Shown here: positions 11,617 to 31,268 of the stretch, piece by piece
Position numbering within the stretch: the stretch's first letter is position 1
Layout of the letters: every line of letters begins with the position of its first letter
From: Candidatus Omnitrophota bacterium
GTDB lineage: Bacteria > Omnitrophota > Gorgyraeia > Gygaellales > Profunditerraquicolaceae
Assembly: GCA_035402765.1 (NCBI GenBank)
Contig: DAONDX010000005.1
Coordinates: 7,304-71,303 of the forward strand
Reading direction: 5' to 3'
Length of the DNA: 64,000 bases
The notes under the pieces: model-generated
Told to the model about the DNA's origin: nothing
Database searches by the model: none
What the model saw: the letters and a program-made list of their open reading frames with translations, nothing else
Made by a program: the position numbers and the translations under genes

Positions 11617-11644
11617 TTGACAAAAAAATATTAAATGTTATACT
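11617..11644 (+). promoter_or_regulatory. consensus sigma-70 promoter upstream of amtB
   Basis: TTGACA, 16 nt, TATACT, with an A-rich UP-like tract upstream. Confidence 0.6.
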
Positions 11645-11758: not shown

Positions 11759-11786
11759 CGAAAAAGGGTTTTATTTTTTTAAAGAC

Positions 11787-11830
11787 AGAGACGTCTTCAA
11801 TCTAACAGAAAGAAGTCGTCTCTTTTTTTT
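11787..11830 (+). terminator. hairpin + U8 intrinsic-terminator-like structure directly upstream of amtB
   Basis: AGAGACGTCTTC...GAAGTCGTCTCT (11/12 complementary) followed by TTTTTTTT. Confidence 0.5.
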
Positions 11831-11848: not shown

Positions 11849-13078
11849 ATGATAAATTCGGGAGATACAGCGTGGGTTTTAATGTCGGCGGCTTTAGTTT
11901 TGTTAATGACTCCGGCTTTGGCGTTCTTTTATGGCGGGATGGTCAGGCGAAAGAATGTTTTGAGTGTTTTAATGCAGTGTTTTATTGTAATGTGCGTTTT
12001 AAGCCTGCATTGGGTATTAATCGGTTATAGCTTATCTTTTGCCCCGGCAAAAGGATTTTGGGGAGGGCTGCAGTGGTTTGGTTTAAACGGAGTAGGTTTA
12101 GAGCCATATGCCGATTATGCCGGAACGATTCCTCACCAGGCATTTATGATCTACCAGTGTATGTTTGCGATCATCACCCCGGCTTTAATTATTGGGGCGT
12201 TTGCAGAAAGGATGAAATTTTCCTCTTTTCTGGTATTTACACTACTGTGGGCTACTTTGGTATATAACCCTTTATGCCACTGGGTTTGGGGTGTTGGAGG
12301 CTGGTTAAGGAATCTGGGGGCGTTGGATTTTGCCGGAGGCACTGTGGTACATATCAATGCCGGAATTGCTGCGTTGGTGACTGCAATAATATTAGGTAAG
12401 CGGGTTAATCTCGATAAAAATATTCCTACTCCTCATAATATGCCGTTAGTAGTTTTGGGCACGGGTCTATTGTGGTTTGGCTGGTTCGGGTTTAATGCCG
12501 GAAGCGCCCTGGCTGCTAATGGTTTAGCGGTTAATGCCTTTGTGGTGACCAATACTGCTGCTGCCGCTGCGGGTTTAAGCTGGGCGTTAATTGAGTGGAT
12601 GCGTAATGGTAAGCCGACAATTTTCGGTGTTTGTTCAGGAGCAGTTGCCGGATTAGTGGCAATTACTCCGGCGGCTGGTTTTGTCAGTGTGATTCCCGCA
12701 ATTATTATCGGATTGTTAGTCAGCGTGTTTTGTTTTGCCGCGGTTACCATAATTAAGCCAAAATTAGGTTATGATGACTCTTTGGATGCTTTTGGCGTGC
12801 ATTGTATCGGCGGTATCTGGGGCGCTTTAGCAACCGGGTTATTTGCTTCTAAATTAGTTAATCCTGCCGGTTCAGACGGGTTATTTTTTGGTAATCCCAA
12901 ACAACTATTAATCCAGCTGACTACTGTTTTAGTTACGATTATTTATACTCTGATTGTGACGCTGATAATTTATAAGCTGGTCGACTTGTTCATGGGGGTG
13001 CGGGTAAAAAAAGATGAAGAGCTTATCGGATTAGATCTTACTCAGCACCATGAACGGGCCTATACCGTATTGGAATAA
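11849..13078 (+). CDS. amtB: ammonium transporter
   Basis: DTAWVLMSAALVLLMTPALAFFYGGMVRRKN, 11 TM helices, conserved His pair region, typical Amt length. Confidence 0.9.
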   Translation: MINSGDTAWVLMSAALVLLMTPALAFFYGGMVRRKNVLSVLMQCFIVMCVLSLHWVLIGYSLSFAPAKGFWGGLQWFGLNGVGLEPYADYAGTIPHQAFMIYQCMFAIITPALIIGAFAERMKFSSFLVFTLLWATLVYNPLCHWVWGVGGWLRNLGALDFAGGTVVHINAGIAALVTAIILGKRVNLDKNIPTPHNMPLVVLGTGLLWFGWFGFNAGSALAANGLAVNAFVVTNTAAAAAGLSWALIEWMRNGKPTIFGVCSGAVAGLVAITPAAGFVSVIPAIIIGLLVSVFCFAAVTIIKPKLGYDDSLDAFGVHCIGGIWGALATGLFASKLVNPAGSDGLFFGNPKQLLIQLTTVLVTIIYTLIVTLIIYKLVDLFMGVRVKKDEELIGLDLTQHHERAYTVLE

Positions 13079-13087
13079 GGAGGAAAG

Positions 13088-13429
13088 ATGAAACTGATTA
13101 TCGCAATAATTCAACCTTCGAAATTAGAAGAAGTCAAAGAAGAGCTTTATAAACAAGAGATTAACCTGATTACGGTCAGTGAAGTTTTGGGGCATGGCCG
13201 TCAGAAAGGGATTACCGAGGTCTACCGCGGCGCGAAAGAAAGCGGCAATCTGCTAAGAAAAATCCGGCTGGAGATCGCGGTAAACCAGAATTTCGTTGAA
13301 CCGACAATTAAGGCCATTGTTAAAGGCGCTAAAACCGGGGAGACTGGGGATGGCAAGATTTTTGTTTTGGATTTAGAAGAATGTGTCCGTATCCGGACAG
13401 AAGAACGCGGCTCGGTTGCAATCGGATAA
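13088..13429 (+). CDS. glnK: nitrogen regulatory protein P-II (GlnK type, linked to amtB)
   Basis: 113 aa. T-loop [15 protein letters not shown] with the conserved Tyr. Located directly downstream of amtB. Confidence 0.9.
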
Positions 13430-13466
13430 ATTTTGATAAACTAAATAATAATAGAGAGGAAAAAAG

Positions 13467-15662
13467 ATGAGCATAAGGCAAAAAGTTCTATTCAAGATTA
13501 AAAGCATAGCATTAGACAAAAATAATTCTCCTGAAAAAGTTTCCAGTTATTTCGGCGAAAATACCTTTAGCTTAGAAACGATGCGTAAGCATATTTCTAA
13601 AACTACTTTTTTAGCATTTAAATCTTGGATGTCGGAAGGGAAAACCATAAGTATGAGCCAGGCCAATGAGATTGCCGATGCGATGAAAGAATGGGCAGTT
13701 TCAAAAGGAGCCACTTATTATACCCACTGGTTTCAGCCAATGACCGGGCTTACTGCAGAGAAACACGATAGTTTTATTTCTTTTGTCCAGCCGAATAAAG
13801 TAATTGAAAAATTTTCCGGAAATAAACTGATCCAGGGAGAGCCGGACGCATCGAGTTTTCCTTCCGGAGGCATCCGGGCTACTTTTGAAGCCCGCGGTTA
13901 TACCGCCTGGGATCCTTCAAGCCCGGCATTTATTATTGAAAGCCTGCTCGGTAAAACTCTTTGCATTCCGACGATATTCATCTCTTATAATGGCGAAGCT
14001 TTGGATAAAAAACTGCCGCTTTTACGTTCTGATGAGGCGTTAAATAAAGCAGCGCTTGGTCTGTTAAAACTTTTCGGCCGGCAGGATGTAAAAAAAGTGT
14101 TTTCTACCTGCGGAGCCGAACAGGAGTATTTTTTGATCGACCGGAATTATTATAATCTGCGCCAGGATTTATTAATGACCGGGAGGACTTTAATTGGCGC
14201 CCCTTCCCCCAAGGGCCAGCAGCTGGAGGATCAGTACTTTGGGACAATTAAAGAACGGGTGGTTAATTTTATGTTTGAAGTTGCTCAGGAGGCGTATAAA
14301 TTGGGAATTCCGATAATGACCCGGCATAATGAAGTAGCGCCGCATCAGTATGAATTCGCCCCTATTTTTGAGGAATCAAATATTGCTGCTGACCATAATC
14401 AACTTTTAATGGAGTTGATGAAAAAAACAGCCCTGCGGCATAATTTAGTCTGCCTTTTGCATGAAAAACCTTTTGGCGGAATAAACGGAAGCGGTAAACA
14501 CTTAAACTGGTCGCTTTCAGATGATCAGGGTAACAATCTTTTAAATCCCGGCAAGACTCCGGAAGAAAACCTGCAGTTTTTGATAATTTTGGTGGCGGTA
14601 TTACATGCTGTGCATTCTCACGCAGATCTTCTGCGGGCAAGCGTGGCTTTAGCCGGCAATGAACACCGTTTAGGCGCAAATGAAGCGCCTCCGGCAATTA
14701 TCAGCGTATTTCTAGGCGAACAATTGGATTCAATCCTGAACATGCTTGAAAACGGCGTTAAATCCAAAGTCTCCAAACAGAATATCATGGATTTAGGAAT
14801 CGGCCGCCTGCCTAGATTTAATAAAGATATGACTGACCGGAATCGTACTTCGCCTTTTGCTTTTACCGGGGCTAAGTTTGAATTCCGCGCGGTTGGTTCG
14901 TCACAGAATATATCTACACCGATTACTATAATTAATACGATCATCGCCGAAAGCCTTGAATATGTCACTAATCAGATTAAAACAGTTAAAGGTACAGGCA
15001 AGGATTTTAATTCTGAAGTTCTAAAGGTAATCAGTAATCTGGTTAAGGAAACTAAAGCTATCCGTTTTGAAGGCAATAATTATGCCCAGGAATGGATCCA
15101 GGAAGCTCAGAAACGGGGTCTGCCTAATATCGCTTCGACCTATGAGGCGCTAGAAGCTTTTACTAAAGTTAAAAATATATCTCTTTTCGAGAAATATAAA
15201 GTTCTTTCCAAGGATGAATTGATCGCCAGATACCATATCTGGATCCATATGTATAATTTGACTTTGGAAATCGAAGCTAATACTTTAAAAGAAATGGTAA
15301 ATGCTTCGGTAGTTCCGGCAGGTTATAAATATGAGAAACTTTTGGCGCGTATTCTGCGTGAGTTGGTGGAATTGGAAAAAAGCGCCGGACTTAAGATAGA
15401 CCCGGCGGCATTAGAAGATAAGAAAACGCATTTAAGTGACGTGGTTTCGAAGATCTATTATGTCAGGCGCAATACAAATGAAATGAGTGATTTACTTGAG
15501 CAAGCTAAAAAATGCAGCAATGAAGAACGCGCTGAGTTGTATTTTAAAGAGCTCAAGCCGTTAATGGAACATATCCGCAGGCACGCGGATGAGTTGGAAT
15601 GCGTGGTGTCCGATGATACTTGGGATCTTCCCAAGTACCGTGAGATGCTGTTTATTAAATAG
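13467..15662 (+). CDS. glnN: glutamine synthetase type III
   Basis: 731 aa. HWFQPMTGLTAEKHDSFISF...KFSGNKLIQGEPDASSFPSGGIRATFEARGYTAWDPSSPAFI matches the GSIII N-terminal signature. Confidence 0.9.
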   Translation: MSIRQKVLFKIKSIALDKNNSPEKVSSYFGENTFSLETMRKHISKTTFLAFKSWMSEGKTISMSQANEIADAMKEWAVSKGATYYTHWFQPMTGLTAEKHDSFISFVQPNKVIEKFSGNKLIQGEPDASSFPSGGIRATFEARGYTAWDPSSPAFIIESLLGKTLCIPTIFISYNGEALDKKLPLLRSDEALNKAALGLLKLFGRQDVKKVFSTCGAEQEYFLIDRNYYNLRQDLLMTGRTLIGAPSPKGQQLEDQYFGTIKERVVNFMFEVAQEAYKLGIPIMTRHNEVAPHQYEFAPIFEESNIAADHNQLLMELMKKTALRHNLVCLLHEKPFGGINGSGKHLNWSLSDDQGNNLLNPGKTPEENLQFLIILVAVLHAVHSHADLLRASVALAGNEHRLGANEAPPAIISVFLGEQLDSILNMLENGVKSKVSKQNIMDLGIGRLPRFNKDMTDRNRTSPFAFTGAKFEFRAVGSSQNISTPITIINTIIAESLEYVTNQIKTVKGTGKDFNSEVLKVISNLVKETKAIRFEGNNYAQEWIQEAQKRGLPNIASTYEALEAFTKVKNISLFEKYKVLSKDELIARYHIWIHMYNLTLEIEANTLKEMVNASVVPAGYKYEKLLARILRELVELEKSAGLKIDPAALEDKKTHLSDVVSKIYYVRRNTNEMSDLLEQAKKCSNEERAELYFKELKPLMEHIRRHADELECVVSDDTWDLPKYREMLFIK

Positions 15663-15733
15663 AAATAATTCTTGGAAGCGGCGCAAAGTTTATGTTTTAT
15701 TTTGGAAAAAACTGATTAAGGATTGTGCAAAAT

Positions 15734-16114: not shown

Positions 16115-16174
16115 TCAGGAATCTCTAAAAAAGCCGCTTTAAGCTTTAAATTAGAAATAAAAGAAGGGAGTTGG

Positions 16175-16897
16175 ATGGACCTCTCAAAGAAAATAAGCAA
16201 ATGGATTAAAGAACAGGTTGATCAGGCCGGGAAAAAAGGTATTGTGGTCGGATTAAGCGGCGGCATTGATTCTGCGGTAACCGCGGTACTCTCTAAAATG
16301 GCTTTGGAAGATAATGTATTGGGATTGATCATGCCGTGCGGTAATCAATCTCAAGATGAGAAATTGGCTCTGGAAATCGCAAAGAAATTCAGCATCCGGA
16401 CCAAGAAAATAAACTTGGCTGCTATCCATAAAGACTTAAGCACGATTCTGCCTCAAGGGAGTGCTTTGGCTATGGCTAATTTAAAGCCCAGATTGAGGAT
16501 GATGATGCTTTATTATTACGCCAATACATTAAATTATTTAGTCGCCGGCACGGGCAATAAGAGTGAACTGGCGATCGGTTATTTTACCAAGCACGGAGAT
16601 GGAGGGTGTGATATCCTTCCATTGGGTGAATTGTTAAAAACTGAGGTCAGAAGTTTGGCAAAAGATTTAAGGATTCCCGGTGTAATTATCCGCAGGCCTC
16701 CTACCGCCGGGCTTTGGAAAGGCCAGACTGATGAGGGGGAGATGGGGGTAACTTATCAAGAGCTCGATAATTGCCTTGAAGCTTTAGAACAGGGAAGGGT
16801 TCCAAAGCTTAAAGATAAAAAACTAACCAAAATAAAGTTAATGATCAAGAACTCTAAACATAAAAGGGATAAGACCCCGATTTTTAAGAAAAAATGA
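16175..16897 (+). CDS. nadE: NH3-dependent NAD+ synthetase
   Basis: PP-loop GLSGGIDSAV. 240 aa, so no glutaminase domain. Confidence 0.85.
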   Translation: MDLSKKISKWIKEQVDQAGKKGIVVGLSGGIDSAVTAVLSKMALEDNVLGLIMPCGNQSQDEKLALEIAKKFSIRTKKINLAAIHKDLSTILPQGSALAMANLKPRLRMMMLYYYANTLNYLVAGTGNKSELAIGYFTKHGDGGCDILPLGELLKTEVRSLAKDLRIPGVIIRRPPTAGLWKGQTDEGEMGVTYQELDNCLEALEQGRVPKLKDKKLTKIKLMIKNSKHKRDKTPIFKKK

Positions 16898-19800
16898 AAC
16901 CATATCATTTTCCTAATAAACAGGGGCTTTATGATCCGCAGTTTGAACACGATGCCTGCGGGGTGGGGTTTGTCTGTAATATCAAAGGAGCCCGGACTAA
17001 TGAAATTATCCGCCAGGGTTTAGAGGTTCTTAAACGGCTGGCACATCGGGGTGCCACCGGCGCAGATCCTCTGACCGGGGATGGGGCAGGTATCCTTATC
17101 CAAATACCGCATGAGTTTTTGCTGAAGGTTTGCCGTGAGATAGCCATCGATCTACCTAAAAAAGGGGATTATGGCACTGGCTTGGTATTTTTGCCTACTG
17201 ATAAAAAAGAGCAGGAGTTTTGTCAGGAAGAATACGCCAGGATTATTGCTGAAGAAAACCTCATACTTCTTGGCTGGCGTCAAGTGCCGGTAAATAATGC
17301 AACCATCGGCATTACCGCTCAACTTACTCAGCCGGCCATTCAACAAATTTTTATTGGTAAAAGCAAAGCATTAACTGATCCTCTGGCTTTTGAACGGAAG
17401 CTCTACGTAGTTAGAAGGCGGATCGAAAATTTAATCCGCAATTCAACGTTAAAGCAAAAATTATTTTTTTACATTACTAATTTATCCTGTCGTACTTTAG
17501 CTTATAAAGGCTTGTTGATGCCGCAGCAATTGGATAGTTTTTTTACGGATCTAAAAGACAGCGATATTAAAAGTGCTTTGTGTTTGGTGCATTCGCGTTA
17601 TTCTACCAATACTTTTCCTACCTGGGATTTGTCACAGCCCTTTAGGTTTCTTGCTCATAACGGAGAAATTAATACTTTGCGCGGTAACGTAAATTGGGTG
17701 AGCGCACGTGAGCGATTATTGGCAAGCGAGTTTTTCGGCGAGGATATTGAGAAAATAAAGCCGGTGATTGTGCCGGGGGGGAGCGACTCGGCGACCATCG
17801 ATAATTTTTTCGAGCTTTTAGTGCTATCCGGAAGATCTCTGGAGCAGGCGATGATGATGTTGATTCCTGCGGCCTGGGAACATGACAACCTTATGAATAA
17901 GAAACTTAGGGAGTTTTATCAATACCATGCTTGTTTTATGGAGCCTTGGGATGGCCCGGCAGCGATTGCTTTTACCGATGGCAAAAATATCGGGGCGATA
18001 TTGGATAGAAACGGGCTGCGGCCTGCCCGTTATATAGTCACTAAAAAAGATTTCGTAGTCATGGCTTCCGAAGTGGGAGTGTTGGATATCGACCCGGCAG
18101 AGATTATGATCTCCGGCCGCCTTGAGCCGGGAAAGATATTTTTTATCGATACCGAAGCTGGTTGTATTGTGCAGGATCAAGTGATAAAAGAAAGCGTGGC
18201 AAAGCATGCCCCATATGGCGACTGGAACGCGAAGAATCTTGTGGATTTGGATGATATTCTTGCAGGCAATATCCCGCAAGAGAAATCAGCGGATTTACTG
18301 CCTCTTTTAAGGGCTTTTGGTTATTCGCGCGAAGATCTTACTTTAATTATCAAGTCTATGGCTCAAGATGGCAAGGAGCCGGTGGGGTCGATGGGATATG
18401 ATACGCCGCACGCCTTTCTTTCTAAAATGCCCCGTATTTTCTATAGCTATTTTAAGCAGCTATTTGCGCAGGTGACTAATCCTCCCATTGATTCTATAAG
18501 AGAAAAACTGGTGATGAGCCTGGAAAGTTTTATCGGGCCTGCGCATAATGTCCTGGATGAGTCCAGCGCGCATGCTCACAAACTGAAAATAAAAAACCCG
18601 ATTCTTAAAAACGAAGAGTTGGAGAAAATCCGGGATATTAGTTTAAATGGATTTAGAACCAAAACCATATTTACTTTTTTTGATGCTAATTTAGGAGTGG
18701 AAGGTTTTAAGCAGGCCCTTGAGAGAATCTGTTTTGAGGCGGAGTACGCGATAGATCAAGGCTATTCATTTATTATTTTGAGTGACCGCGGAGCAGATAA
18801 AGATGCGATTGCTTTGCCTGCGCTTCTGGCGACTAGCGCGATACATCATTACCTGGTGCGTAAAACCAGCCGTTCGCAAGTGGCGATTATCGTTGAAAGC
18901 GCAGAGCCGCGGGAGGTGCATCATTTTGCTTTACTCTTTGGATACGGTGCCGATTGCGTGAATCCCTATCTTGCTTATGAAACCGTTGAATATCTTATAA
19001 AAGAGAACGAGGTTTCGCTTGACTATGAAAGCGCTTTAACGAATTACCATAAGGCTTTAACTGACGGAATATTGAAAATACTTTCTAAAATGGGGATATC
19101 GACATTGAGAAGCTACCGGGGTGCCCAGATATTCGAGGCGCTGGGTTTGGATAATGGGCTTATTGATCAATATTTTACCGGTACGGTTTCACGTATTGCC
19201 GGCGTAAATTTGGAAGGGATTGCCAATGAAACAATCCAGCGGCATCGTGAAGCGTATTGCCTAACCTCACAGCAGCGGCCTTACTTATCCAGCGGCGGGA
19301 TTTATCAATGGAAAAAAGACGGAGAGTTCCATTTGTGGAATCCGGAGAGCATTGCCGCGCTTCAAGATGCCTGTCGCGCAGATAACTATAACAAGTATAA
19401 AGAATTCGCTCTTTTGATCGATGAACAATCAAATCATCCTACAACGCTTCGGAGTTTATTTAATTTTAAGAAAGCTGAAGCAATCCCCCTGGATGAGGTC
19501 GAGCCGGTTGAGGATATTATGTGCCGGTTTGTCACCGGAGCAATGAGTTTTGGTTCCATCAGCGGCTCTGCGCATGAAACTATTGCTATTGCCATGAACC
19601 GGATCGGCGGTAAGTCTAATACGGGGGAAGGCGGCGAAGACCCTAACCGTTTTATTACTTTGCCTAACGGTGATTCCCGCAGGAGCGCGACTAAGCAGGT
19701 TGCTTCCGGAAGATTCGGGGTGACTACCAATTATTTGGTGAATGCGGATGAAATACAAATCAAGATCGCTCAAGGGGCCAAACCCGGTGAGGGCGGGCAA

Positions 19801-21426: not shown

Positions 21427-22864
21427 GATAAGAGGTTTTTTAAAATTTGCCAGAAAAAATAATCCCAGCCGTCAGGTCTGTGAGCGGGTTAAGGATTATA
21501 ACCAGGTTGCTATTCCCAGGCTTGATGCGATAGCGCAAGAGCAAGCCGCGCGGTGTATGAATTGCGGTACGCCTTTTTGCCACTCTGCCTGCCCGATCGG
21601 AAATTATATTCCGGAGTGGAATGATTTTATGTTTCGCGGTAACTGGAAAGCAGCGCTTGCTTTGCTGGAGGCTGCGAATAACCTTCCTGAAATCACCGGC
21701 CGGTTGTGCCCGGGGTTATGCGAATATGCCTGCGTGCTGGGTTTAAATGATGACGCAATAACCATCCGCGAAAATGAACTTTCGATTATCGAATTTGGTT
21801 TTAAAAATGGCATGCTTACACCCTTATGCAAAAGCAATCCTACGGGTAAAGAAGTTGCGGTCGTTGGCAGCGGGCCGGCAGGTTTATCAGCCGCTGCGCA
21901 ATTGAATAGGGCCGGCCATCGGGTAACTGTCTTTGAAAAGGATGATGCTGTCGGAGGGATTTTACGTTACGGGATCCCGGATTTTAAGCTGGAAAAACAC
22001 CTAATCCAGCGGCGTATCGATTTATGGAAAAAAGAAGGAATTGTTTTTAAAACCGGCATTGAGGTAGGTAAAGATTACCCCGGGAAAAAACTTTTAGTGG
22101 ATTTTGATGCCGTATGCCTGGCGTTGGGCAGTCGTCAACCTCGGGATCTTCCTATCGAAGGCCGCGATTTAAAAGGGATTCATTTTGCGATGGATTATTT
22201 AACGCAATCAAATAAGCGCATTGCTGGTAAAAAAATCGAGCCGAAAGACTTAATTGACGCTAAAGGTAAAAAAGTAGTAATAATCGGTGGAGGAGATACG
22301 GGGGCCGATTGTCTAGGTACTGCGCATCGCCAAGGAGCATCCTGCGTGGTACAGATTGAAGTAATGCCGCGCCCGGCAGAATGCCGGACACAATCTTTTC
22401 CCTGGCCGAGCTATCCTTTATTGCTTAAAACTTCTTCCAGCCACCAAGAGGGGGGAGAACGCCACTGGGCAGTGCTGACTAAACGTTTTATCGGAGCAAA
22501 CGGGCAAGTTAAGAAGCTGGCGTGTGTAAGAACCGAATTCACGAAAACTGAAAGTGATAGCTGCCCGGTAATGCGTGAAATTAAGGGAAGCGAATTTGAG
22601 ATCGAGGCGGATTTAATTATTATTGCCGTAGGTTTTTTACATACATCCAGATCCGGAATCTTGACTGATCTTGATGTGGCAATCGATCAGCGGGGAAATG
22701 TAAAAACCGATGCGCTATATAAAACTTCAGTGAAAAAGGTTTTTGGCTGCGGCGATATGCGCCGCGGGCAATCTTTGGTCGTCTGGGCGATCTCAGAAGG
22801 CCGGCGTGCAGCTTATTGTATTGATACCTATCTGATGGGTAAAAGCAATTTGCCGCTTATGTAA
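21419..22864 (+). CDS. gltD: glutamate synthase small subunit (NADPH)
   Basis: Cys clusters CMNCGTPFCHSACP. Dinucleotide-binding VAVVGSGPAGLSAAAQL and IIGGGDTGADC motifs. Confidence 0.9.
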   Translation: MGEIRGFLKFARKNNPSRQVCERVKDYNQVAIPRLDAIAQEQAARCMNCGTPFCHSACPIGNYIPEWNDFMFRGNWKAALALLEAANNLPEITGRLCPGLCEYACVLGLNDDAITIRENELSIIEFGFKNGMLTPLCKSNPTGKEVAVVGSGPAGLSAAAQLNRAGHRVTVFEKDDAVGGILRYGIPDFKLEKHLIQRRIDLWKKEGIVFKTGIEVGKDYPGKKLLVDFDAVCLALGSRQPRDLPIEGRDLKGIHFAMDYLTQSNKRIAGKKIEPKDLIDAKGKKVVIIGGGDTGADCLGTAHRQGASCVVQIEVMPRPAECRTQSFPWPSYPLLLKTSSSHQEGGERHWAVLTKRFIGANGQVKKLACVRTEFTKTESDSCPVMREIKGSEFEIEADLIIIAVGFLHTSRSGILTDLDVAIDQRGNVKTDALYKTSVKKVFGCGDMRRGQSLVVWAISEGRRAAYCIDTYLMGKSNLPLM

Positions 22865-22920
22865 CGGCTCAACCTGTCAGATGCCCCGGTGTCTGGCTGA
22901 TTGCAGGAGGAGGATTTATT

Positions 22921-25551
22921 ATGATAAGTACAGGGATAAAAGGGTTAGATACGATTCTTACCGGTCTAAGGGCCGGAGACAATGTGGTTTGGCAGATTGA
23001 CGATATTAAGGACTATGTCCAATTGGTAGAACCGTTTGTCCAAGAGGCTTTAAAAGAAAAAAAGAAAGTCATTTATATGCGTTTTGCGGCGCATAAAGAA
23101 TTACTTAAGCCTTCTAAACAGATAAAACGTTATGAGTTGAATGCCCGGGCGGGATTTGAGTCGTTCACTACCAAAATCAACACGATTATTACTCAAGAAG
23201 GCCAGGACGCCTATTATGTGTTCGATTGTCTTTCTGAACTGCTTTCTGCCTGGGCCACTGACCTGATGATCGGGAATTTTTTCATGGTCACCTGCCCCTA
23301 CCTTTATGAGCTTAAGACCGTCACCTATTTTTCACTTTTACGCAACAACCACTCTTTTAAATCTATCGCCCGTATTCGTGAAACCACGCAGTTATTGATC
23401 GATGTTTATCACAGCGGGGGTGTTTTTTATATTCACCCACTTAAGGTGTGGAACCGGTATTCACCGACGATGTTCCTGCCGCATCAAAAGAAAGGTGCAG
23501 CCTGCATTCCTGTGACCGATAGCGTAAATGCGGCAAAAGTGTTGTCTTATATCCACAAAAAAGGTATCCAGAACGCCCAGAGAAATCTAGATTATTGGGA
23601 TCGCTTATTTCTCGCTGCTGAAGAGTTGCTTAGAAAAAACGGGACGCAAGATAAAAAACAAAGAATGGTTAAAGAATTTTGCGGCCTGATGATTACCAAA
23701 AACAAAAAAATCCTGGCATTAGCGATGCGCCATTTCTCGCTTGAAGAGCTGGTGGAGATAAAATCCCGTTTAATCGGCACGGGTTTTATCGGGGGCAAAA
23801 GCGTGGGCATGCTTTTAGCCAGACAAATACTTGCTAAAAACTCTGCGCTGGATTGGCAGTCAGTTACCGAGCCGCACGATTCATTTTATATCGGATCGGA
23901 TATATTCTATTCCTATATTGTTCAGAATCACTGGTGGAAGCTGCGGATGCAGCAAAAGACCGAAAATGGGTATTTTTCTGTAGCAAAAATTCTCAAAGAG
24001 AAGATGCTTTACGGTGTATTTTCCGAGGAGATTATGGAAGATTTCCAACAAATCATAGAATACTTTGGTACTTCTCCGATTATTGTGCGTTCGAGTTCGC
24101 TTCTGGAAGATGGGTTTGGTAATGCTTTTGCCGGAAAATACGAGAGCATATTCTTAGCTAACCAGGGGACTCCTGAGCAGCGGTATATTCAGTTCGCTGA
24201 GGCGGTAAAAAAAATCTATGCCAGTACGATGAATGAAGATGCCCTCACTTACCGTAAGCAACGGGGTTTGGATAAACTAGATGAACAGATGGCGCTTCTG
24301 GTGCAGCGGGTTTCAGGCAGCCCGCATAAGCAGTATTTTTTTCCGGATATCGCCGGAGTAGGAGTTTCATATAACACTTATGTGTGGAATGATGTTATGG
24401 ACCCCAAGGTAGGAATGCTGCGTCTGGTGTGCGGGTTAGGAACCCGGGCCGTGAACCGCGTGGAGGGTGATTATCCCAGGATGGTGGCGCTGGATAATCC
24501 TTTACGACGCCCTTATTCCGAACGTGATGACGTAAAAAGGTATTCGCAGCGCGCAGTAGATGTTATCAACATTAAGGAAAATAACTTATCAACGGTCACT
24601 TTCGATAGCCTGATTAAAGAAAGGTCTTATCCCCATCCGGAGCGTATCGCCACTAAAGATTATGATGCTATGCGGATGATGGATGAAAGAGGGATCCAGA
24701 CGGAAGAATCATGGATACCGACTTTCGATAATTTGTTTCAGGATTCGCTCTTTGCAGGTTACTTTAAAAAGATTATGGAATCCCTAAAACAGGTTTACCA
24801 GTATCCCGTGGAGATAGAATTTACGGTGAATTTTACCGCTAACAACACTTTTAAAATAAATCTTTTGCAATGCCGTCCTTTGCAAACACGGGGATTGGGC
24901 AGTAAAGTAGAAATTCCATCCCAGATAAATAAAGATGATATCTTTTTTGAGTCCAATGGGTATTTTCTGGGAGGAAATATTTCGCAGAAGATATCTTGGG
25001 TTGTAAACGTTGATCCCGAAAGATACAGTTTGCTCAATTTACAGGATAAATACGAGGTTGCGCGGATCGTGGGTAAAATAAACCGCACCATCCAGAACAA
25101 AGAGGAATTGCCGACTTTGATGATCGCGCCGGGGCGTTGGGGTACCACTACTCCGTCGTTAGGCGTGCCAGTAAAGTTTGCCGAGATAAATAATGTTACC
25201 GTACTCACCGAAGTCGCCTCGGACAAAGGCAATCTTATGCCGGAGTTATCCTTCGGCACGCACTTCTTCCAGGATTTAGTGGAGACGGGCATATTTTTTG
25301 TTGCGTTATTTCCTGAAAGAAAAGGAGTGGTATTTAATAATAAGTGGCTGAAAGAATTAAAAAATCTGTTTGTGGATCTTATCCCCGAATCACCCAGGTT
25401 TAAAGACGTAATCGGGGTCTATGGTGTCGGTGATAGAAATTTAAAGATTATGTCAGATGTCGTATCGCAAAAGGTTGTTTGTTTTGGGTCTAAAAAAGAA
25501 TTTCCAAAACCTGAAGAAAAAGTTTTGGAAAGCGCAAAAAGGGGGAGTTAA
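22921..25551 (+). CDS. KaiC/RecA-like (P-loop-less) N-domain + PEP/pyruvate-binding (PPDK_N-like) domain protein
   Basis: N-terminal [23 protein letters not shown] resembles the KaiC/RadA fold but lacks a Walker A. Central [13 protein letters not shown] and ATP-grasp-like PPDK_N segments. 876 aa. Confidence 0.5.
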
Positions 25552-25553
25552 GG

Positions 25554-27155
25554 ATGGCCAAATACATTTTTATAACCGGCGGGGTTATTTCAAGTTTAGG
25601 CAAAGGTATAGCCAGCGCTTCGATCGGGAAAATTTTAGAGTCGCGGGGTTTAAAGGTTGCTTTGATGAAACTTGATCCTTATATCAATGTTGACCCCGGA
25701 ACTATGAACCCTTATCAACATGGCGAGGTCTATGTTACTGAAGACGGAGCAGAAACAGATCTGGATCTGGGGCATTATGAACGTTTCACGAATACGCTTT
25801 CATCAAAGTTTAATAATATAACGACCGGGCAGATTTATAACAGTGTAATCTCCAGAGAAAGGAAGGGAGATTATCTAGGTAAAACCATCCAGGTTATTCC
25901 GCACATTACCGATGAAGTGAAAAACAGGATAAAAAAATGCGCGGAGGTTTCCAAGGCGGATATTGTTATTGTTGAGATAGGCGGCACAGTGGGGGATATC
26001 GAAAGCCTGCCTTTTCTGGAAGCGGCCAGACAATTCAGGCTGGATATGGGTTATGATAATGTGCTTTATATTCATCTAACCCTGGTACCATATATTAAGG
26101 CCGCAGAAGAGGTAAAAACCAAACCCACCCAGCATAGCGTGGGTACTTTGCGCGGGATAGGGATTATTCCGGATATTTTAATCTGCCGTACGGAAAAACC
26201 GTTGTCGGAGAGTGTTAAAGAGAAGATTTCTTTATTCTGTAATGTAAAAAAAGAAGCGGTGATCGAATCCCCGGATATGGAATCAATATATCAGGTCCCT
26301 TTAGTTTTTAAAAAACAAATTCTGGATGAAATAATTTTAAGCCATTTTAAGCTGATCTGTAAGTTTTCGGATTTAAAAGAATGGGAGCATGATGTTGTAA
26401 ACAGAATGCTTAATCCGGAAAACCGGGTTACCATTGCTGTGGTGGGAAAATATATCGAACTTCAGGATGCTTATAAGTCAATATATGAAGCGCTTGTCCA
26501 TGGCGGTATCTATAATGATACTAAAGTAGAAATAAAAAAAATCGATTCTGAAATTCTGGAAAGATCCGGGATAGAAAGAATAATGCAGGGTATTTCGGGA
26601 ATTCTGGTTCCCGGAGGATTCGGCTACCGGGGGATCGAAGGCAAAATTAAAGCCGTTAAATTCGCCCGGCTGAACAAAATTCCTTTTCTGGGACTTTGTT
26701 TAGGGATGCAGTGTGCGGCGATAGAGCTGGCCAGAGATATTTGTAATTTGCCCGGGGCAAATTCCTCGGAATTTAAAAAAACAAAATATCCGGTTATCAG
26801 TTTATTGGAGGAGCAGGAGGGGGTTTCTGATTTAGGCGGAACGATGCGTTTAGGCGGCTATCCCTGTAAGATTAAAAAAAATACCCTGGCGGCTAAGGTA
26901 TATGGTAGGATGCTTATTCAGGAACGCCACCGCCACCGCTATGAATTCAATAATAAATACCGGAAAATTTTTGAGAAAAAAGGCGTGATTTTTTCCGGGA
27001 TATACCCTAAGAAAAATTTAGTTGAAATAATTGAACTGAAAGGGCATCCTTATTTTATTGCGGTACAGTTCCACCCGGAGTTTAAATCTAAACCGGATAA
27101 GGCGCATCCTTTGTTTAAAAAGTTTATCAAAGCTGCGTTAGAGAAGGCAGGATAG
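25554..27155 (+). CDS. pyrG: CTP synthase
   Basis: [25 protein letters not shown]. GATase Cys in GLCLGMQ. Confidence 0.95.
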
Positions 27156-27162
27156 AAAAAAA

Positions 27163-28260
27163 ATGGAAGCAATACTGGCTTTAGAAGACGGTAAAATTTT
27201 TAGAGGAAAATCATTCGGGGCACCCGGAGAAAGATACGGCGAAGTGGTATTTAATACCGGCATGACCGGTTATCAAGAGGTGCTTACCGACCCTTCTTAT
27301 AAGGGGCAGATTGTGGTGATGACCTATCCTTTGATCGGAAATTACGGTATTAACAAAGAGGATGCAGAGTCTTCCGGAATATCTTTGGAAGGTTTTGTTG
27401 TTAAGGAGTGCAGTGCGATTGCCAGCTCCTGGCGTTCTCAGCAGTCACTCTCTGATTATTTATCCGAGAATAACATTCTAGGTATGCAGGGAATAGATAC
27501 GCGGGCCTTAACTTTGCATATCCGCAAAGCCGGAGCGATGAAAGCGGTTTTGTCTACGCTGGATTTGGATGAAAAGAGTTTAGTCCAAAAAGCCAGGAAT
27601 TCTGCCGGTTTAGTCGGCAGGGATTTAGTCAAAGAAGTTGCTTGCCGAAGTAAGCATGTTTGGCCAGGGATGCTTCCAAAAAACAAATATAAGGTTGTGG
27701 TTGTTGATTGCGGAGTAAAGTATAACATTTTGAATAAGCTAGCGGAAAATAAATGCCGGGTAATTGTTGTCCCGGCTAAAACATCCGCTAACGAAATTTT
27801 GAAAATGAAACCGGATGGTATTCTGCTTTCAAACGGCCCGGGAGATCCTGCGGCAGTCAGTTATGTTATTGAAACAACAAAACGATTAATCGGAAAGATC
27901 CCGATATTCGGAATCTGTTTAGGGCATCAGATACTCGGTTTGGCTTTAGGGGGCAGGACTTTTAAGCTTAAATTCGGCCATCACGGGGTAAACCACCCGG
28001 TTAAAGATTTAAAAACAAATAAAGTTTTAATCACGGTTCAGAACCATGGTTTTTGTGTGGATATAGATTCTTTAAGCAAGAAAGATATAGAAGTTACCCA
28101 TATTAATTTAAACGATCAAACTTTAGAAGGTATGCGGCATAAAAAACTGCCTATATTTTCGGTGCAATTCCATCCGGAATCTTCAGCCGGTCCGCATGAC
28201 GCCGGATACTTATTTAGAGAGTTTATTAAGATGATGGAGAAATATGCCCAAGAGAACTGA
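27163..28260 (+). CDS. carA: carbamoyl-phosphate synthase small (glutaminase) subunit
   Basis: GICLGHQ catalytic Cys. HNHGF...FHPE triad region. Confidence 0.9.
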
Positions 28261-29887
28261 TATTAAGAAGATTTTAATTATTAGCTCAGGCCCGATTGTC
28301 ATCGGCCAGGCCTGTGAGTTTGATTATTCCGGGACGCAAGCCTGTAAAGTTTTAAGACAGGAAGGTTATCATGTGATTTTAGCTAATTCCAACCCGGCTA
28401 CGATCATGACCGACCCGGAATCGGCCAATAAGACTTATATTGAGCCTCTTTCGGTAGAGGTTTTAGAAAAAATCATCATCCGGGAAAAACCGGATTGCTT
28501 ACTGCCTACTTTGGGCGGTCAGACGGCTTTGAATTTAGCGGTAGAATTGGCGGAAAAAGGAATATTAAAAAAACATAAAGTCCAGGTTATCGGGGCAAAT
28601 ATTAAAGCCATTAAAAAAGGCGAGGACCGCCGGCTTTTTAAGGCGGCCATGCAAAAAATCGGGCTGGATTTACCCAGGAGCCAAAAAGCGTATAATTTAG
28701 CAGAAGCTTCTGCCGTGGTTAAGGAGATAGGTTTTCCGGTGATTATCCGGCCGAGTTTTACTTTGGGCGGTACCGGCGGCAGCGTGGCTTATAATTTAGA
28801 GGAATTCAAAAAATTGGCTAAATTCGGGCTGGAATCCAGCATGATCAGTGAAATTTTAATCGAAGAAAGCGTTGCCGGTTGGAAAGAATTTGAGCTTGAG
28901 GTTATGCGGGATAAAAAAGATAATGTCGTAATTATCTGTTCCATTGAAAATTTTGATCCGATGGGGGTGCATACCGGGGATAGTATTACGGTTGCTCCGA
29001 TCCAGACGCTCACCGATAAAGAATACCAGAAAATGCGCGATGCGGCGATTGCCTGTATCCGGGAAATCGGTGTTGAGACGGGCGGTTCGAATATCCAGTT
29101 TGCCGTCGACCCTAAGACCGGGCGGCTGGTTGTAATTGAAATGAATCCGCGAGTTTCCAGAAGCTCGGCTTTATCTTCTAAAGCCACGGGTTTTCCGATT
29201 GCAAAAATTGCCGCCAAATTAGCGGTGGGCTATACTCTGGATGAGATTTCCAATGATATTACTAAAAAGACCCCCGCTTGTTTTGAGCCGACGATTGATT
29301 ATTGCGTAGTGAAAATTCCCCGTTTTACCTTTGAAAAATTTCCCCAAGCTGATTCTACCCTTACGGTATCGATGAAGTCAGTAGGCGAGGTAATGTCGAT
29401 CGGCAGGAGCTTTAAAGAGGCCCTGCAAAAAGCGCTGCGTTCTTTAGAAATCGGCTTGAGCGGTTTGGATGATTTGAAATCTTTACCGGATGATGACCAG
29501 TTATTAAAAAATTTAAGGGTGCCCAACGCTTTAAGGATTCTTTATATTAAGGCGGCGATAAAGAAAGGCTATAGTTTAGATAAAATAAATAGTTTGACCG
29601 GAATTGACATCTGGTTTTTAGAGAATATCAGGCAGATTATTGAAATGGAGACAGAAATTAAAGAAAAATTGAGATTAAATAACGAGGATTCCTCAATTCG
29701 GCTTCTCAAAAAAGCAAAAGAATTTGGTTTTTCAGATGTGCAGTTGGCGCGATTATCCGGCCAAAGCCAGACTGCTATAAGAAAGTGGCGGGTGGGTTTA
29801 GGAATAATTCCGGATTACAAATTAGTTGATACCTGCGCGGCGGAATTTGAGGCAGCCACTCCTTATTATTATTCGACCTATGAATAG
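28244..29887 (+). CDS. carB: carbamoyl-phosphate synthase large subunit, N-terminal half only (split carB)
   Basis: [26 protein letters not shown]... aligns with the carboxyphosphate ATP-grasp and oligomerisation domains. The ORF ends at ~547 aa with a stop followed by an RBS and purF. Confidence 0.85.
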
Positions 29888-29897
29888 GAGGTTTTAA

Positions 29898-31268
29898 ATG
29901 TGCGGAATATTAGGGATATATCCACATAAAGATGCGGCGACCTTGGCTTGTTTAGGCCTGTATGCGCTTCAACATCGGGGGGAAGAATCCGCCGGGATAA
30001 TTACCCGCAACGGTAAGAAGGTGCATTTGCATAAAGCCTTAGGCTTAGTCAGCGATGTGTTTGATGAAAAAATCCTGCGCAGTTTACGCGGTGATTTTGC
30101 TATTGGACATCTGCGTTATTCGACTACCGGAAGCAGCAATATTAAAAATACCCAACCCTTTTACGTAAAATCAAAGATCGGGAATATTGCTATCGCGCAT
30201 AACGGAAATCTTACTAATACGCTGGAGCTTTCCAAAGAGTTGGAAAATAACGGCGCCTTATTCCAGACGACCATGGATTCAGAGATTATTGCCCACCTTC
30301 TTGCGCATAGCCAGAAAAAAGATATTAAGGAGGCGATTATCTGGTCGCTTGCTAAACTGGAAGGGGCGTATTCTTTAGTTTTAATGCTTAAGGACACTTT
30401 GGTCGGAGCCAGGGATACTTTCGGCTGGCGCCCGCTTTGCCTGGGAAAATTTGAAGGGGCTTATATTCTGGCCAGTGAAACCTGCGCTTTGGATTTAATT
30501 AATGCGGAGTATATCCGGGATATTGAACCGGGTGAAATAGTATTTATTAACAAAGGAAGCTTGGAGTCGATTAAGCCTTTTAAAAAGACAAAGCATGCGC
30601 ATTGTATTTTTGAATATATTTATTTTGCCCGTCCGGATAGCAATATTTTCGGCCATAACGTGTATCTGGCGCGGAAAAAACTGGGCGCGCAATTAGCCAG
30701 GGAATTTCCGGTTCAGGCGGATATGGTGATGCCGATTCCTGATTCCGGGGTATTTGCCGCTTTGGGATATTCGGAAATTTCCAAGATTCCTTTTGAGTTC
30801 GGGATGATCCGTAATCATTATATCGGAAGGACTTTTATTCAACCTAGCCAAGAGATGCGCGATTTTCGGGTAAAAATAAAACTTAATCCTTTAAGGGATG
30901 TCTTAAGAGGCAAAGAAGTAATTTTGGTTGAAGATTCTATCGTGCGTGGCACTACCAGCAGGGCGCGGCTTAAGACTTTACGCCAGGCAGGAGTAAAAAA
31001 GATCCATATGCGGGTCAGCTGTCCGCCGCTTAAATTTCCTTGTTTTTACGGTATAGATTTCCCCACTAAGAAAGAGCTGGTTGCCTCCAAGCATGATATT
31101 GCCTGGATCCGTGATTTTATCGGCGCCGATAGCCTGGAATATTTAAGCTTGGAAGGGATGTTAAGTGCCATGCCTTTGCCTAAAGAAAATTTCTGCACCG
31201 CTTGTTTTACGGGCAAATACCCGCTTGACCATGCCTGCCATTTTTCTAAAAACATTTTAGAGAAATAG
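29898..31268 (+). CDS. purF: amidophosphoribosyltransferase
   Basis: MCGILGIY N-terminal nucleophile. PRTase motif. C-terminal Cys ligands. Confidence 0.95.
   Translation: MCGILGIYPHKDAATLACLGLYALQHRGEESAGIITRNGKKVHLHKALGLVSDVFDEKILRSLRGDFAIGHLRYSTTGSSNIKNTQPFYVKSKIGNIAIAHNGNLTNTLELSKELENNGALFQTTMDSEIIAHLLAHSQKKDIKEAIIWSLAKLEGAYSLVLMLKDTLVGARDTFGWRPLCLGKFEGAYILASETCALDLINAEYIRDIEPGEIVFINKGSLESIKPFKKTKHAHCIFEYIYFARPDSNIFGHNVYLARKKLGAQLAREFPVQADMVMPIPDSGVFAALGYSEISKIPFEFGMIRNHYIGRTFIQPSQEMRDFRVKIKLNPLRDVLRGKEVILVEDSIVRGTTSRARLKTLRQAGVKKIHMRVSCPPLKFPCFYGIDFPTKKELVASKHDIAWIRDFIGADSLEYLSLEGMLSAMPLPKENFCTACFTGKYPLDHACHFSKNILEK

Follow-up and report, generated by a model that had tools for sequence, protein, structure and literature searches.

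A candidate ANTAR-gated operon for nitrogen assimilation and distribution in an uncultivated Omnitrophota bacterium

In enterobacteria, glnK-amtB, glnALG, gltBDF, carAB, pyrG and purF each stand in an operon of their own, controlled by NtrC/sigma-54, PurR, PepA/ArgR and further regulators. An uncultivated Candidatus Omnitrophota bacterium has these enzymes too and likewise pairs AmtB with GlnK, but here the genes form one co-directional block behind one leader. In the 64-kb stretch of DNA analysed (the window), twelve genes from amtB to purF occupy 19.4 kb of the + strand, and their products take up ammonium and distribute its nitrogen to glutamate, NAD, CTP, carbamoyl phosphate and purines. 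Is so broad a set of genes governed from a single control region? Our analysis suggests that amtB to purF is probably one ANTAR-gated operon for nitrogen assimilation and distribution, which would be controlled after transcription initiation. This would represent a known kind of nitrogen control applied to an unusually large gene set, in a phylum without earlier examination for ANTAR substrates.

Gene identities were assigned from ORF coordinates and Pfam/NCBIfam profile matches (Table 1). They agree with the ten genes named in an initial annotation of the locus, and the overlaps that it described are exact (4 nt for nadE/gltB, 8 nt for gltB/gltD and 17 nt for carA/carB). However, its gene list was incomplete, as a Fis-like HTH_8 DNA-binding protein and an 876-aa protein were overlooked. 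The latter consists of a KaiC/RecA-like N-domain without Walker A, a PPDK_N ATP-grasp and a C-domain with an invariant His781. Because these two genes lie inside the span, the claim that every enzyme after glutamine synthetase (GS) uses NH3 or the glutamine amide is unproven; two members of the cluster fall outside the amide-nitrogen theme. Four amidotransferases were counted instead of the three proposed, namely class I PyrG and CarA and class II GltB and PurF. NadE is taken as the NH3-dependent type, since NAD_synthase is the sole domain of this 240-aa protein. The carB gene is split, and its C-terminal half was not found in the 64-kb window.

Table 1. Genes and predicted signals of the cluster, with positions in the window
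Feature	Position	Strand	Evidence or remark
Intrinsic terminator closing upstream unit	11518..11553	+	terminator scan; 16-bp stem, T-rich tail
Sigma-70-type promoter, TTGACA-16-TATACT	11617..11644	+	11/12 matches; TG extended -10
H0, 5'-terminal hairpin, TTGAC[AGTGAT]GTCAA	11650..11665	+	-4.9 kcal/mol
H1, hairpin, GAC[AAAGAT]GCC	11677..11688	+	3' arm is start of T1
T1, intrinsic terminator	11686..11718	+	-11.0 kcal/mol; 8-bp stem, U-run
H2, hexaloop hairpin, AGGG(A)C[AAAGAT]GCCCT	11720..11736	+	3' arm GCCC is base of T2
T2, intrinsic terminator	11732..11780	+	-18.7 kcal/mol; U-run
H3, hexaloop hairpin, AAAGC[AGAGAT]GCTTT	11742..11759	+	also T2 apex
H4, hexaloop hairpin, AAGAC[AGAGAC]GTCTT	11782..11797	+	P2 type, consensus RAC[RANGRC]GUY
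T3, intrinsic terminator	11787..11830	+	-15.7 kcal/mol; U8
amtB, ammonium transporter	11849..13078	+	Ammonium_transp, 442 bits
glnK, PII signal protein	13088..13429	+	P-II; T-loop Tyr51 present
glnN, type III glutamine synthetase	13467..15662	+	GSIII_N, 252 bits
Fis-like HTH_8 DNA-binding protein, 129 aa	15725..16114	+	profile match
nadE, NH3-dependent NAD+ synthase	16175..16897	+	NAD_synthase
gltB, glutamate synthase large subunit	16894..21426	+	Pfam/NCBIfam
gltD, glutamate synthase small subunit	21419..22864	+	Pfam/NCBIfam
Uncharacterised KaiC-like/PPDK_N protein	22921..25551	+	PPDK_N is sole Pfam/NCBIfam domain
pyrG, CTP synthase	25554..27155	+	Pfam/NCBIfam
carA, carbamoyl-phosphate synthase small subunit	27163..28260	+	Pfam/NCBIfam
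carB, N-terminal half	28244..29887	+	model positions 1-542 of 1058
purF, amidophosphoribosyltransferase	29898..31268	+	TIGR01134, 530 bits; starts MCGI
Intrinsic terminator ending cluster	31393..31430	+	14-bp stem, 7 GC pairs
Next promoter-like site beyond cluster	31489-31517	+	promoter-like match

The predicted fold of the leader comprises H0 and three hairpin-and-U-run terminators (z = -3.65 vs shuffles). All of the small hairpins (5/5) have a hexaloop with A in position 1 and G in position 4 (A1 and G4). T1, T2 and T3 share sequence with the 3' arms of H1, H2 and H4, respectively; the 5' arm of T3 is made of the H4 loop together with the H4 3' arm. The small hairpins range from 0 kcal/mol (H1, unfolded alone) to -5.2 kcal/mol, and termination would be the default state because the terminators are more stable. 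Only 18 nt separate the end of T3 from the amtB start codon, too short a spacer for a further promoter. In other genomes, five homologous leaders retain H0, T1-T3 and the promoter, the last as CTTGACA-N17-TATAnT, and leader DNA identity in the homologue comparison is 79%; the six-sequence alignment shows slight covariation only (covariation term -0.38). The H0 stem covaries in one relative, L003 (CTAC/GTAG), but the A..G.. pattern of the H0 loop, G4 in particular, is not kept in all relatives, so H0 may be just a 5' stabiliser. Two further details fit an ANTAR target less well: H1 is weak in the window, where it has an A.C mismatch, whereas close relatives have a clean GGC[AAAGAA]GCC, and the H2 stem carries a bulge. 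Co-regulation of ammonium uptake, GS/GOGAT and the amide-consuming enzymes from this leader is nonetheless well supported computationally. The proposal in the initial annotation that the cluster is co-regulated from positions 11617-11848 gains a conserved promoter with attenuators, but the probable mechanism, protein-mediated antitermination, had gone unrecognised.

Ramesh et al. (2012, PMC3369931) described ANTAR substrates as having stems of 3 bp or more, an A1/G4 hexaloop and an overlap with a terminator. In the dual-hexaloop substrates (EutV/eut, NasR/nasF and AmiR/amiE), two short stem-loops are mutually exclusive with the adjacent terminator. ANTAR matches were also reported ahead of genes for PII, ammonium transporters, glutamine synthase and glutamate synthase, with Desulfotomaculum acetoxidans as an example of a nitrogen regulon, and GAF-ANTAR proteins were described as uncharacterised (PMC3369931). 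The window hairpins share the A1/G4 hexaloops and terminator overlap of these substrates, and in both cases a regulon contains several elements, but the window's units are chained, with five hairpins and three terminators. The H2/H3/T2 unit departs from the canonical P1-P2-terminator layout, as H3 is the terminator apex and not a competitor. Nucleotide-biosynthesis genes, which are present in the Omnitrophota cluster, are not among the ANTAR targets listed by these authors.

In another study, Ueki and Lovley (2010, PMC2995071) reported antitermination of nitrogen genes by GnfK/GnfR in Geobacter sulfurreducens, where intrinsic terminators in the glnK-amtB and nif leaders are relieved by the ANTAR protein. 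With these two studies, ANTAR control of amtB, glnK, GS and GOGAT genes has documented precedent. The GnfR element CAGGCAANGGCGCC, that is GGC[AANGGC]GCC, overlaps the terminator (PMC2995071), and P2 hairpins of the same type (GGC[AAAGAA]GCC, GAAC[AAAGGC]GUUC and AAGAC[AGAGAC]GUCUU) occur in Omnitrophota. Compared to Geobacter, the Omnitrophota system exhibits several distinct features. First, GnfR is a phosphorylated response regulator under an RpoN/GnfLM cascade (PMC2995071), whereas the Omnitrophota promoters are of the sigma-70 type and the relatives' regulators are one-component GAF-ANTAR proteins. Second, a single leader carries a stack of three terminators. Third, the Omnitrophota regulon adds GOGAT and the NAD, CTP, carbamoyl-phosphate and purine amidotransferases, and contains no nif genes.

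Two motif searches agreed on one part of the leader. A descriptor derived from relatives gave a single match on both strands of the 64-kb window, at 11743-11797, compared with a mean of 0.23 matches per strand in shuffles. The top match of covariance model R2, which was trained only on elements from more distant relatives, is at 11742-11797 (16.7 bits, 8/8 pairs formed), with H3 in position P1 and with an E of about 0.1 that is not significant taken alone; among related leaders, six have their homologous site recovered by this model. Model R1, built on a 7-nt-loop subfamily, missed the leader (6.5 bits, E 6.7).

These features suggest how the leader might operate. The strong conserved promoter would fire, and by default the transcript would stop at T1, T2 or T3, all within a 200-nt leader; three terminators in series would give very low basal read-through. 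Under nitrogen limitation, an RNA-binding ANTAR-domain dimer, of the one-component GAF-ANTAR type in relatives, would bind pairs of the A..G.. hexaloop hairpins H1-H4. Binding would stop terminator folding because the hairpin 3' arms are also terminator 5' arms, and RNA polymerase would then read into amtB-glnK-glnN-HTH8-nadE-gltBD-PPDK_N-pyrG-carA-carB(N)-purF. The trans-acting factor in the window organism would presumably be an ANTAR protein, and the signal nitrogen status, perhaps sensed as 2-oxoglutarate or PII via the GAF domain.

The terminators might instead be controlled by a riboswitch (e.g., for glutamine) or by a PyrR- or TRAP-like protein, or attenuation might be constitutive and simply set a low expression level. 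A search of the 64-kb window, 10-17 kb of flanking contig and the retrieved parts of the closest relatives revealed no ANTAR-domain gene near the cluster in the window's clade, which also counts against the ANTAR reading. The repeated ACARAGAYG motif could serve any protein, and a weak PyrR-site match is present at 11730-11830, in a cluster that contains pyrG and carAB. However, this match is sub-threshold (26.1 bits vs a gathering score of 54), no Rfam family, riboswitch and leader families included, reaches its threshold, and hairpins of 12-18 nt are too small for a ligand pocket. In addition, the geometry and A1/G4 loops fit ANTAR substrates as well as the GnfR site of Geobacter, and relatives with the same element type have an in-cluster GAF-ANTAR gene. 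Control by anything other than an ANTAR protein is therefore very unlikely.

Such GAF-ANTAR genes are located within the syntenic clusters of six relatives (L016, L017, L022, L026, L028 and L030), and Pfam confirms GAF_2 and ANTAR domains for L030 and L017. In the relatives, hairpin-and-terminator units precede amtB, porin-amtB, glnA, glnN, HTH8-gltB, gltB, pyrG, carA and the ANTAR gene itself. Across the Omnitrophota loci, 46/407 + strand terminators have an overlapping A..G.. hairpin, compared with 14/385, 12/323 and 10/394 in controls, and the dual-hairpin descriptor gave 21 matches on the + strand vs 1 on the - strand. Since the relatives' pyrG and carA carry ANTAR attenuators of the same type, these genes would belong to the same regulon even if transcribed separately, and co-regulation would stand with different transcripts.

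Whether the window's genes share one transcript depends on the junctions between them. Operon prediction, a check proposed with the initial annotation, favours linkage: the seven gaps between non-overlapping genes (2-62 nt each) are free of terminator-like sites, the first such non-coding site past the cluster, a strong terminator, lies 125 nt after purF, and promoter-like matches are about as numerous as chance would give (50 found vs 42.6 +/- 6.7 expected from shuffles). We infer that all twelve genes may be carried on one 19.7-kb transcript. Alternatively, control by the leader might stop after amtB-glnK, or perhaps glnN, and the remainder would be separate units with promoters in the 56-62-nt gaps before HTH8, nadE and PPDK_N or within coding sequence, their adjacency reflecting lineage history rather than co-transcription. 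Relatives do split the same genes, each unit with its own promoter and attenuator, but such junctions are 130-300 nt there, and the window's gaps lack the relatives' boundary marks, namely the CTTGACA-N17-TATAnT promoter, a GTTACC...TTACTT box and a terminator. Weak promoters could hide in the A+T-rich gaps, and promoter-like sites matching at 10 of 12 positions are present inside genes (at 12681, 22596 and 28669), although such matches are no commoner than in shuffles. Three junctions overlap and three are 2-10 nt, consistent with translational coupling. The single-strand layout is real but is weak evidence for linkage here, because every ORF of at least 100 aa from 1 to 47.7 kb is on the + strand (counting those that are annotated or that no larger + strand gene contains), and co-direction spans this whole 47-kb stretch regardless. 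Taken together, separate units are unlikely.

Conserved synteny in relatives is confined to the core of the cluster. The order amtB-glnK-GS-HTH8-gltB-gltD(-PPDK_N) recurs in about 30 related loci, with HTH_8 kept immediately upstream of gltB in Omnitrophota. The full order is not kept: pyrG, carA, carB and purF follow the core in shuffled order among these loci, and nadE is seen only in the window species' version of the cluster, both of which would also suit separate units. Housekeeping genes might instead have piled up on the leading strand by chance, with no regulatory meaning, which would agree with the window-wide + strand bias and positive GC skew. Nevertheless, this explanation is disfavoured as extremely improbable, given the leader conservation and the fact that, across many genomes, attenuators of one type precede the same gene families. 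Furthermore, many Omnitrophota genomes share the core order, with protein identities of 60-76%, and the arrangement is unusual, as initially proposed, being absent from 50 gltBD loci of other phyla, which retain gltB-gltD alone.

The nitrogen cluster of this Omnitrophota contig consists of twelve genes on the + strand, from amtB to purF (11849-31268), which were called from an ORF list together with Pfam and NCBIfam scans. The initial annotation had named ten of these genes, all of which were recovered at the same coordinates, and the overlaps that it gave for nadE/gltB, gltB/gltD and carA/carB (4, 8 and 17 nt) were exact. It was largely correct as a whole, but it had passed over two genes, those of a Fis-type HTH_8 protein and of an 876-aa protein, and had counted three amidotransferases where four are present. 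The gaps between the non-overlapping genes are 2 to 62 nt. The carB gene is split, with purF placed directly 3' of its N-terminal half; the C-terminal half was absent throughout the 64-kb window, and adjoins the N-terminal half in six related gltD loci (L001, L011, L014, L022, L023 and L030). The shared direction of the genes is little evidence of co-regulation in itself, because from 1 to 47.7 kb the + strand carries every ORF of at least 100 aa that is annotated, or not nested in a larger gene of that strand; GC skew is also positive throughout.

Features of the leader and the nitrogen cluster, in window coordinates
Feature	Position	Strand	Evidence or remark
Terminator closing the upstream unit	11518-11553	+	
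Promoter TTGACA-16-TATACT, extended -10	11617-11644	+	11/12 matches; best promoter match of the region
Intrinsic terminator T1	11686-11718	+	-11.0 kcal/mol
Intrinsic terminator T2	11732-11780	+	-18.7 kcal/mol
Intrinsic terminator T3	11787-11830	+	-15.7 kcal/mol
amtB	11849-13078	+	Pfam/NCBIfam
glnK	13088-13429	+	Pfam/NCBIfam
Type III glutamine synthetase (glnN)	13467-15662	+	Pfam/NCBIfam
Fis-type HTH_8 protein, 129 aa	15725-16114	+	Pfam/NCBIfam
nadE, NH3-type, 240 aa, NAD_synthase domain alone	16175-16897	+	Pfam/NCBIfam
gltB	16894-21426	+	Pfam/NCBIfam
gltD	21419-22864	+	Pfam/NCBIfam
876-aa protein, sole Pfam domain PPDK_N	22921-25551	+	Pfam/NCBIfam
pyrG	25554-27155	+	Pfam/NCBIfam
carA	27163-28260	+	Pfam/NCBIfam
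carB, N-terminal half	28244-29887	+	Pfam/NCBIfam
purF	29898-31268	+	Pfam/NCBIfam

The leader in front of amtB (11617-11848) has an elaborate predicted structure. Its 200-nt transcript folds into a 5' hairpin followed by three hairpins, each with a U-run (z = -3.65), and the last terminator ends 18 nt 5' of the amtB ATG, so that transcription of amtB would require read-through of T1, T2 and T3. Five small hairpins, H0 to H4, are found in the same leader. Their loops (AGUGAU, AAAGAU, AAAGAU, AGAGAU and AGAGAC) are all hexaloops with A at the first and G at the fourth position, and the 3' arms of H1, H2 and H4 double as the 5' arms of T1, T2 and T3, respectively. H3 forms the apex of T2 and is compatible with it rather than exclusive. 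H3 and H4, each of 5 bp, are separated by a linker of 23 nt, and H2 (5 bp plus a bulge) lies 6 nt from H3, so two tandem pairs with stems of at least 3 bp are available; H1 is sub-standard, with 2 bp and a mismatch. In isolation the small hairpins reach only 0 to -5.2 kcal/mol, H1 remaining unfolded, and termination would therefore be the default state.

This anatomy fits the published definition of RNA substrates of the ANTAR RNA-binding domain, namely two stem-loops of at least 3 bp with A1 and G4 in their hexaloops, exclusive with a terminator (PMC3369931). A dual-hairpin descriptor of this layout had a single match on the two strands of the window, at H3 and H4 (11743-11797), compared to a mean of 0.23 matches per strand in the shuffled window. 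Two covariance models were also applied. The first, R1, built from seven elements of a subfamily with 7-nt loops, did not detect the leader (6.5 bits, E 6.7). The second, R2, built from six hexaloop elements, none of them from the clade of the window, had its top match in the window at 11742-11797 (16.7 bits, E about 0.1, 8 of 8 pairs formed) and also detected the homologous site in the related leaders L093, L094, L099, L100, L098 and L005. The R2 E-value would be weak by itself, and the weight of this match would come from the top rank falling within a leader of 230 nt. The proposal that the cluster is co-regulated from this leader is supported in its main point, and can be restated as control by a predicted ANTAR-type antitermination leader.

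Other assignments were considered and rejected. A search of Rfam 15, at the gathering score and also with E relaxed to 10, gave nothing credible in the leader, where no known family of cis-regulatory RNA (glutamine riboswitch, PyrR, T-box and others) reached its gathering threshold; the PyrR site scored 26.1 against a threshold of 54, and the best leader score, that of SpR14, was 26.3 against 50. Some simpler measures were not informative. A plain count of A..G.. hairpins, with stems of 4 bp or more, is non-specific, giving 102 on the + strand, and was replaced by the dual-hairpin test and a test of overlap with terminators. A 10-mer regular expression for the second (P2) hairpin showed no overall enrichment, as it also matched control genomes of high GC content. 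As for the regulator, tblastn with ANTAR consensus sequences found no ANTAR gene in the window or in the fragments from close relatives, nor was one found in the flanks when the contig was extended past both ends of the window.

Candidates for such a regulator are encoded in more distant relatives. ANTAR proteins of about 235 aa were found by tblastn within the syntenic clusters of six loci (L016, L017, L022, L026, L028 and L030), and Pfam confirmed a GAF_2 and an ANTAR domain in the two that were scanned, L030 (gene at 3794-4510) and L017. In L026 the leader of the GAF-ANTAR gene itself (17440-17720) contains, besides a strong promoter, three ANTAR-type attenuators in tandem, which implies positive autoregulation.

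The intergenic regions of the relatives contain many attenuator units in which a hairpin of consensus RAC[RANGRC]GUY shares sequence with the 5' arm of a terminator, usually with another hairpin, for example GCAC[AAAGUU(U)]GUGC, on its 5' side, and which stand 3' of strong CTTGACA-N17-TATAnT promoters. The units precede amtB, porin-amtB, glnA, glnN, HTH8-gltB and gltB, a gene with an archaeal-type glutamate synthase domain, nfnA-like and gltD-like genes, and also pyrG (L003, L009) and carA (L023, L022). On the + strand of the Omnitrophota loci, 46 of 407 terminators had an overlapping A..G.. hairpin, compared to 14 of 385 on the - strand; the corresponding figures for loci of other phyla were 12 of 323 and 10 of 394. 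The descriptor of a dual hairpin plus U-run behaved similarly, matching 21 times on the + strand and once on the - strand of the Omnitrophota loci, and five and four times in the other-phyla loci, which comprise nearly twice the sequence. As this descriptor was learned in part from the same loci, the independent part of the result is the strand asymmetry and the association with particular genes.

With GltD as query, species-representative genomes yielded 80 loci, to which all cluster proteins were compared by tblastn. The best loci were from Candidatus Omnitrophota MAGs, with up to 71% identity, and the same gene order together with the 876-aa protein was found on contigs from several metagenomes. 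The order amtB-glnK-GS-HTH8-gltB-gltD recurs among about 30 loci of Omnitrophota and allied groups, the glutamine synthetase (GS) being of either type I or type III, and the PPDK_N gene is directly next in the closest relatives and in one Auribacterota MAG. In these loci pyrG, carA, both halves of carB and purF come after the core in varying order, and nadE is in the cluster in this species alone. The 50 loci of other phyla retain gltB-gltD and nothing else of the cluster. Gene order in relatives, which the initial annotation had put forward as a check, is therefore kept for the core and not for the genes that follow it; the supercluster is a trait of the lineage, stable at its core and fluid at its edges.

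Homologous leaders were obtained by a pattern scan of metagenomes; they come from close relatives whose amtB is about 90% identical. Together with that of L005 they align at 79% identity, and the promoter, H0, T1, T2 and T3 are present in all of them, with variable terminator loops and a few compensatory changes. A covariation analysis of six homologous leaders had little power, given their 79% identity and two motifs fixed by the search pattern. The leader is located 5' of porin-amtB in L094 and L100 and directly 5' of HTH8-gltB in L005 and L098, which suggests that it acts as a mobile control module for the gene set. The closest relatives carry two tandem amtB-glnK pairs (L093, 8704-12544; L099, 4416-7955), whose amtB copies are 36% and 90% identical to that of the window and between which the triple-terminator leader is placed.

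The cluster of the window has the layout of one operon, with one strand, short gaps or overlaps, an upstream promoter and an end terminator. There are no terminator-like sites in its seven non-overlapping intergenic gaps, and promoter-like matches are no more frequent than by chance (50 against 42.6 +/- 6.7 expected). The next non-coding terminator-like site is at 31393-31423, 125 nt 3' of purF, and is followed by a new promoter. In relatives, the clusters are split by internal attenuators, with promoters and attenuators at five junctions of 130-300 nt; the same junctions in the window are 37 nt (glnK to GS), 62 nt (GS to HTH8), 56 nt (gltD to the next gene), 2 nt (before pyrG) and 7 nt (before carA). 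Most simply, several ANTAR-gated units that are separate elsewhere would have been fused in this species into one, presumably read as a single transcript, behind a triple attenuator.

Some relatives may have an additional layer of control. A GTTACC-N10-20-TTACTT box has 15 + strand matches in 12 Omnitrophota loci (L001 2123-2149; L002 1285-1311 and 3539-3565; L007 3473-3499; L026 395-421 and 3538-3564; L030 3357-3383; L093 7438-7464; L099 3418-3444; and others) and none in the window. It stands directly 5' of ANTAR-type elements in the loci whose surroundings were read, and may be a promoter recognised by an alternative sigma factor. A sigma-54 promoter (GG-N10-GC), sought by eye in this box and in the glnN-HTH8 gap, was rejected because the spacing was wrong. 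A small divergent sigma-like protein of 171-174 aa, with a weak Sigma70_r2 match and a GerE-type HTH, is encoded 5' of porin-amtB (L093 6914-7438, L099 2894-3418, L002 785-1300), and its gene has a three-terminator leader in L093 and L099 and a single ANTAR-type attenuator in L002. This arrangement suggests a cascade from ANTAR protein to sigma factor to GTTACC-box promoters.

The HTH_8 protein is similar to Fis and to the C-terminus of NtrC, its gene (72-129 aa) is immediately 5' of gltB in most Omnitrophota loci, and it is possibly a DNA-level regulator of the cluster. The 876-aa protein belongs to a very large, uncharacterised family, with 827 cluster representatives at E < 1e-30 and at least 8000 clusters at 90% identity. 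Identification as PEP synthase, pyruvate phosphate dikinase or rifampin phosphotransferase was rejected, as the best NCBIfam score was 58.7 bits against a cutoff of 883 and Pfam found PPDK_N alone, with no PEP-utilizer swivel or PEP/pyruvate-binding domain. A sequence search of the PDB returned no relative (E = 0.11). The AlphaFold model is confident (pLDDT 89) and has three parts: a KaiC/RecA-like N-domain without a Walker A motif and with a weak MEDS match, an ATP-grasp domain resembling those of rifampin phosphotransferase and PEP synthase, and a C-terminal domain whose invariant SxGTH781 motif recalls phospho-histidine swivel domains. In a fold search rifampin phosphotransferase was matched by the ATP-grasp part alone, and the N-domain led to KaiC. 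Across Omnitrophota the protein is 72-81% identical, more conserved than GltD, and its gene adjoins gltD; its tie to nitrogen metabolism is one of position only. Distant homologues showed no consistent functional link from context, their neighbours being alpha-amylase and PGI (as with the 1470-aa homologues of Geobacter), pyrF or ADC.

Control of nitrogen genes by ANTAR proteins is established, for the most part from single operons of cultivated Proteobacteria and Firmicutes. According to Ramesh et al., ANTAR substrates lie 5' of genes for PII, ammonium transporters, glutamine synthase and glutamate synthase, and Desulfotomaculum acetoxidans has 13 elements arranged in six units (PMC3369931); GnfR of Geobacter relieves terminators 5' of glnK-amtB and nif genes through GGC[AANGGC]GCC (PMC2995071). 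The leader of the window would work by the same principle, as read from its sequence, and differs from these systems in four features. First, ANTAR antitermination would extend to an uncultivated phylum. Second, the likely regulator is of the GAF-ANTAR type, a sensor class with no characterised member. Third, three terminators are stacked in one leader, and such a natural series of attenuators should yield very tight and steep control. Fourth, the regulon would reach beyond ammonium assimilation to CTP, carbamoyl-phosphate, purine and NAD synthesis, including the first committed glutamine-consuming steps of the pyrimidine, purine and NAD pathways, which suggests that one RNA switch can throttle all major amide-nitrogen sinks. 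These features do not overturn current understanding and constitute a well-defined, testable extension of it. The conserved 876-aa protein, genetically tied to glutamate synthase, is a target for biochemistry.

A much broader scheme is conceivable, although we regard it as rather unlikely. Omnitrophota and the neighbouring Auribacterota would share a phylum-wide, one-component GAF-ANTAR regulon metering all of the ammonium and glutamine-amide nitrogen of the cell, from uptake and GS/GOGAT to NAD, CTP, carbamoyl-phosphate and the entry into purines, compacted here into a single 12-gene operon with a three-stage attenuator. The conserved, uncharacterised KaiC-like/ATP-grasp/His781 protein, invariably encoded beside gltD, would then have a previously unrecognised role in nitrogen assimilation, perhaps as a phosphotransfer enzyme or as a regulator of GOGAT.

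The surroundings of the cluster contain other regulatory elements. Two nhaA-I elements (Na+ riboswitch class, RF03057) score above the gathering threshold, at 2720-2786 (39.9 bits) and 8852-8902 (49 bits). The former precedes a trehalose/osmoprotection cluster (2834-8835) with genes for a Cache+GT20 trehalose-6-P-synthase-like protein, MscS, a trehalose phosphatase, a DUF5752 protein and a TreT-like protein, and the latter precedes a lone Rnf/Nqr-subunit ORF (9523-10131). The A+T-rich stretch at 8900-11600 (GC about 0.36) contains fragments only, namely this single subunit, an 85-aa CitMHS piece (10931-11188) and tiny ORFs, and has the appearance of degenerate transporter genes, situated between the riboswitch and the nitrogen leader. 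The leader motif RCARAGAYGY has its sole other copy in the window at 44507-44550, in a terminator-like hairpin (CCCAAG...CTTGGG, apex GC[AGAGAU]GC) with a U-rich tail, 5' of a gene for a REC-HD (HD-GYP-like) response regulator (44566-45537). On the 3' side of the cluster, a 79-aa MazE/AbrB-like gene (31594-31833) is followed by an RND efflux system (MFP, AcrB and two OEP) and then by an ABC-2 exporter set, up to 44334; these genes have their own promoter (31489-31517) and are unrelated to nitrogen metabolism.
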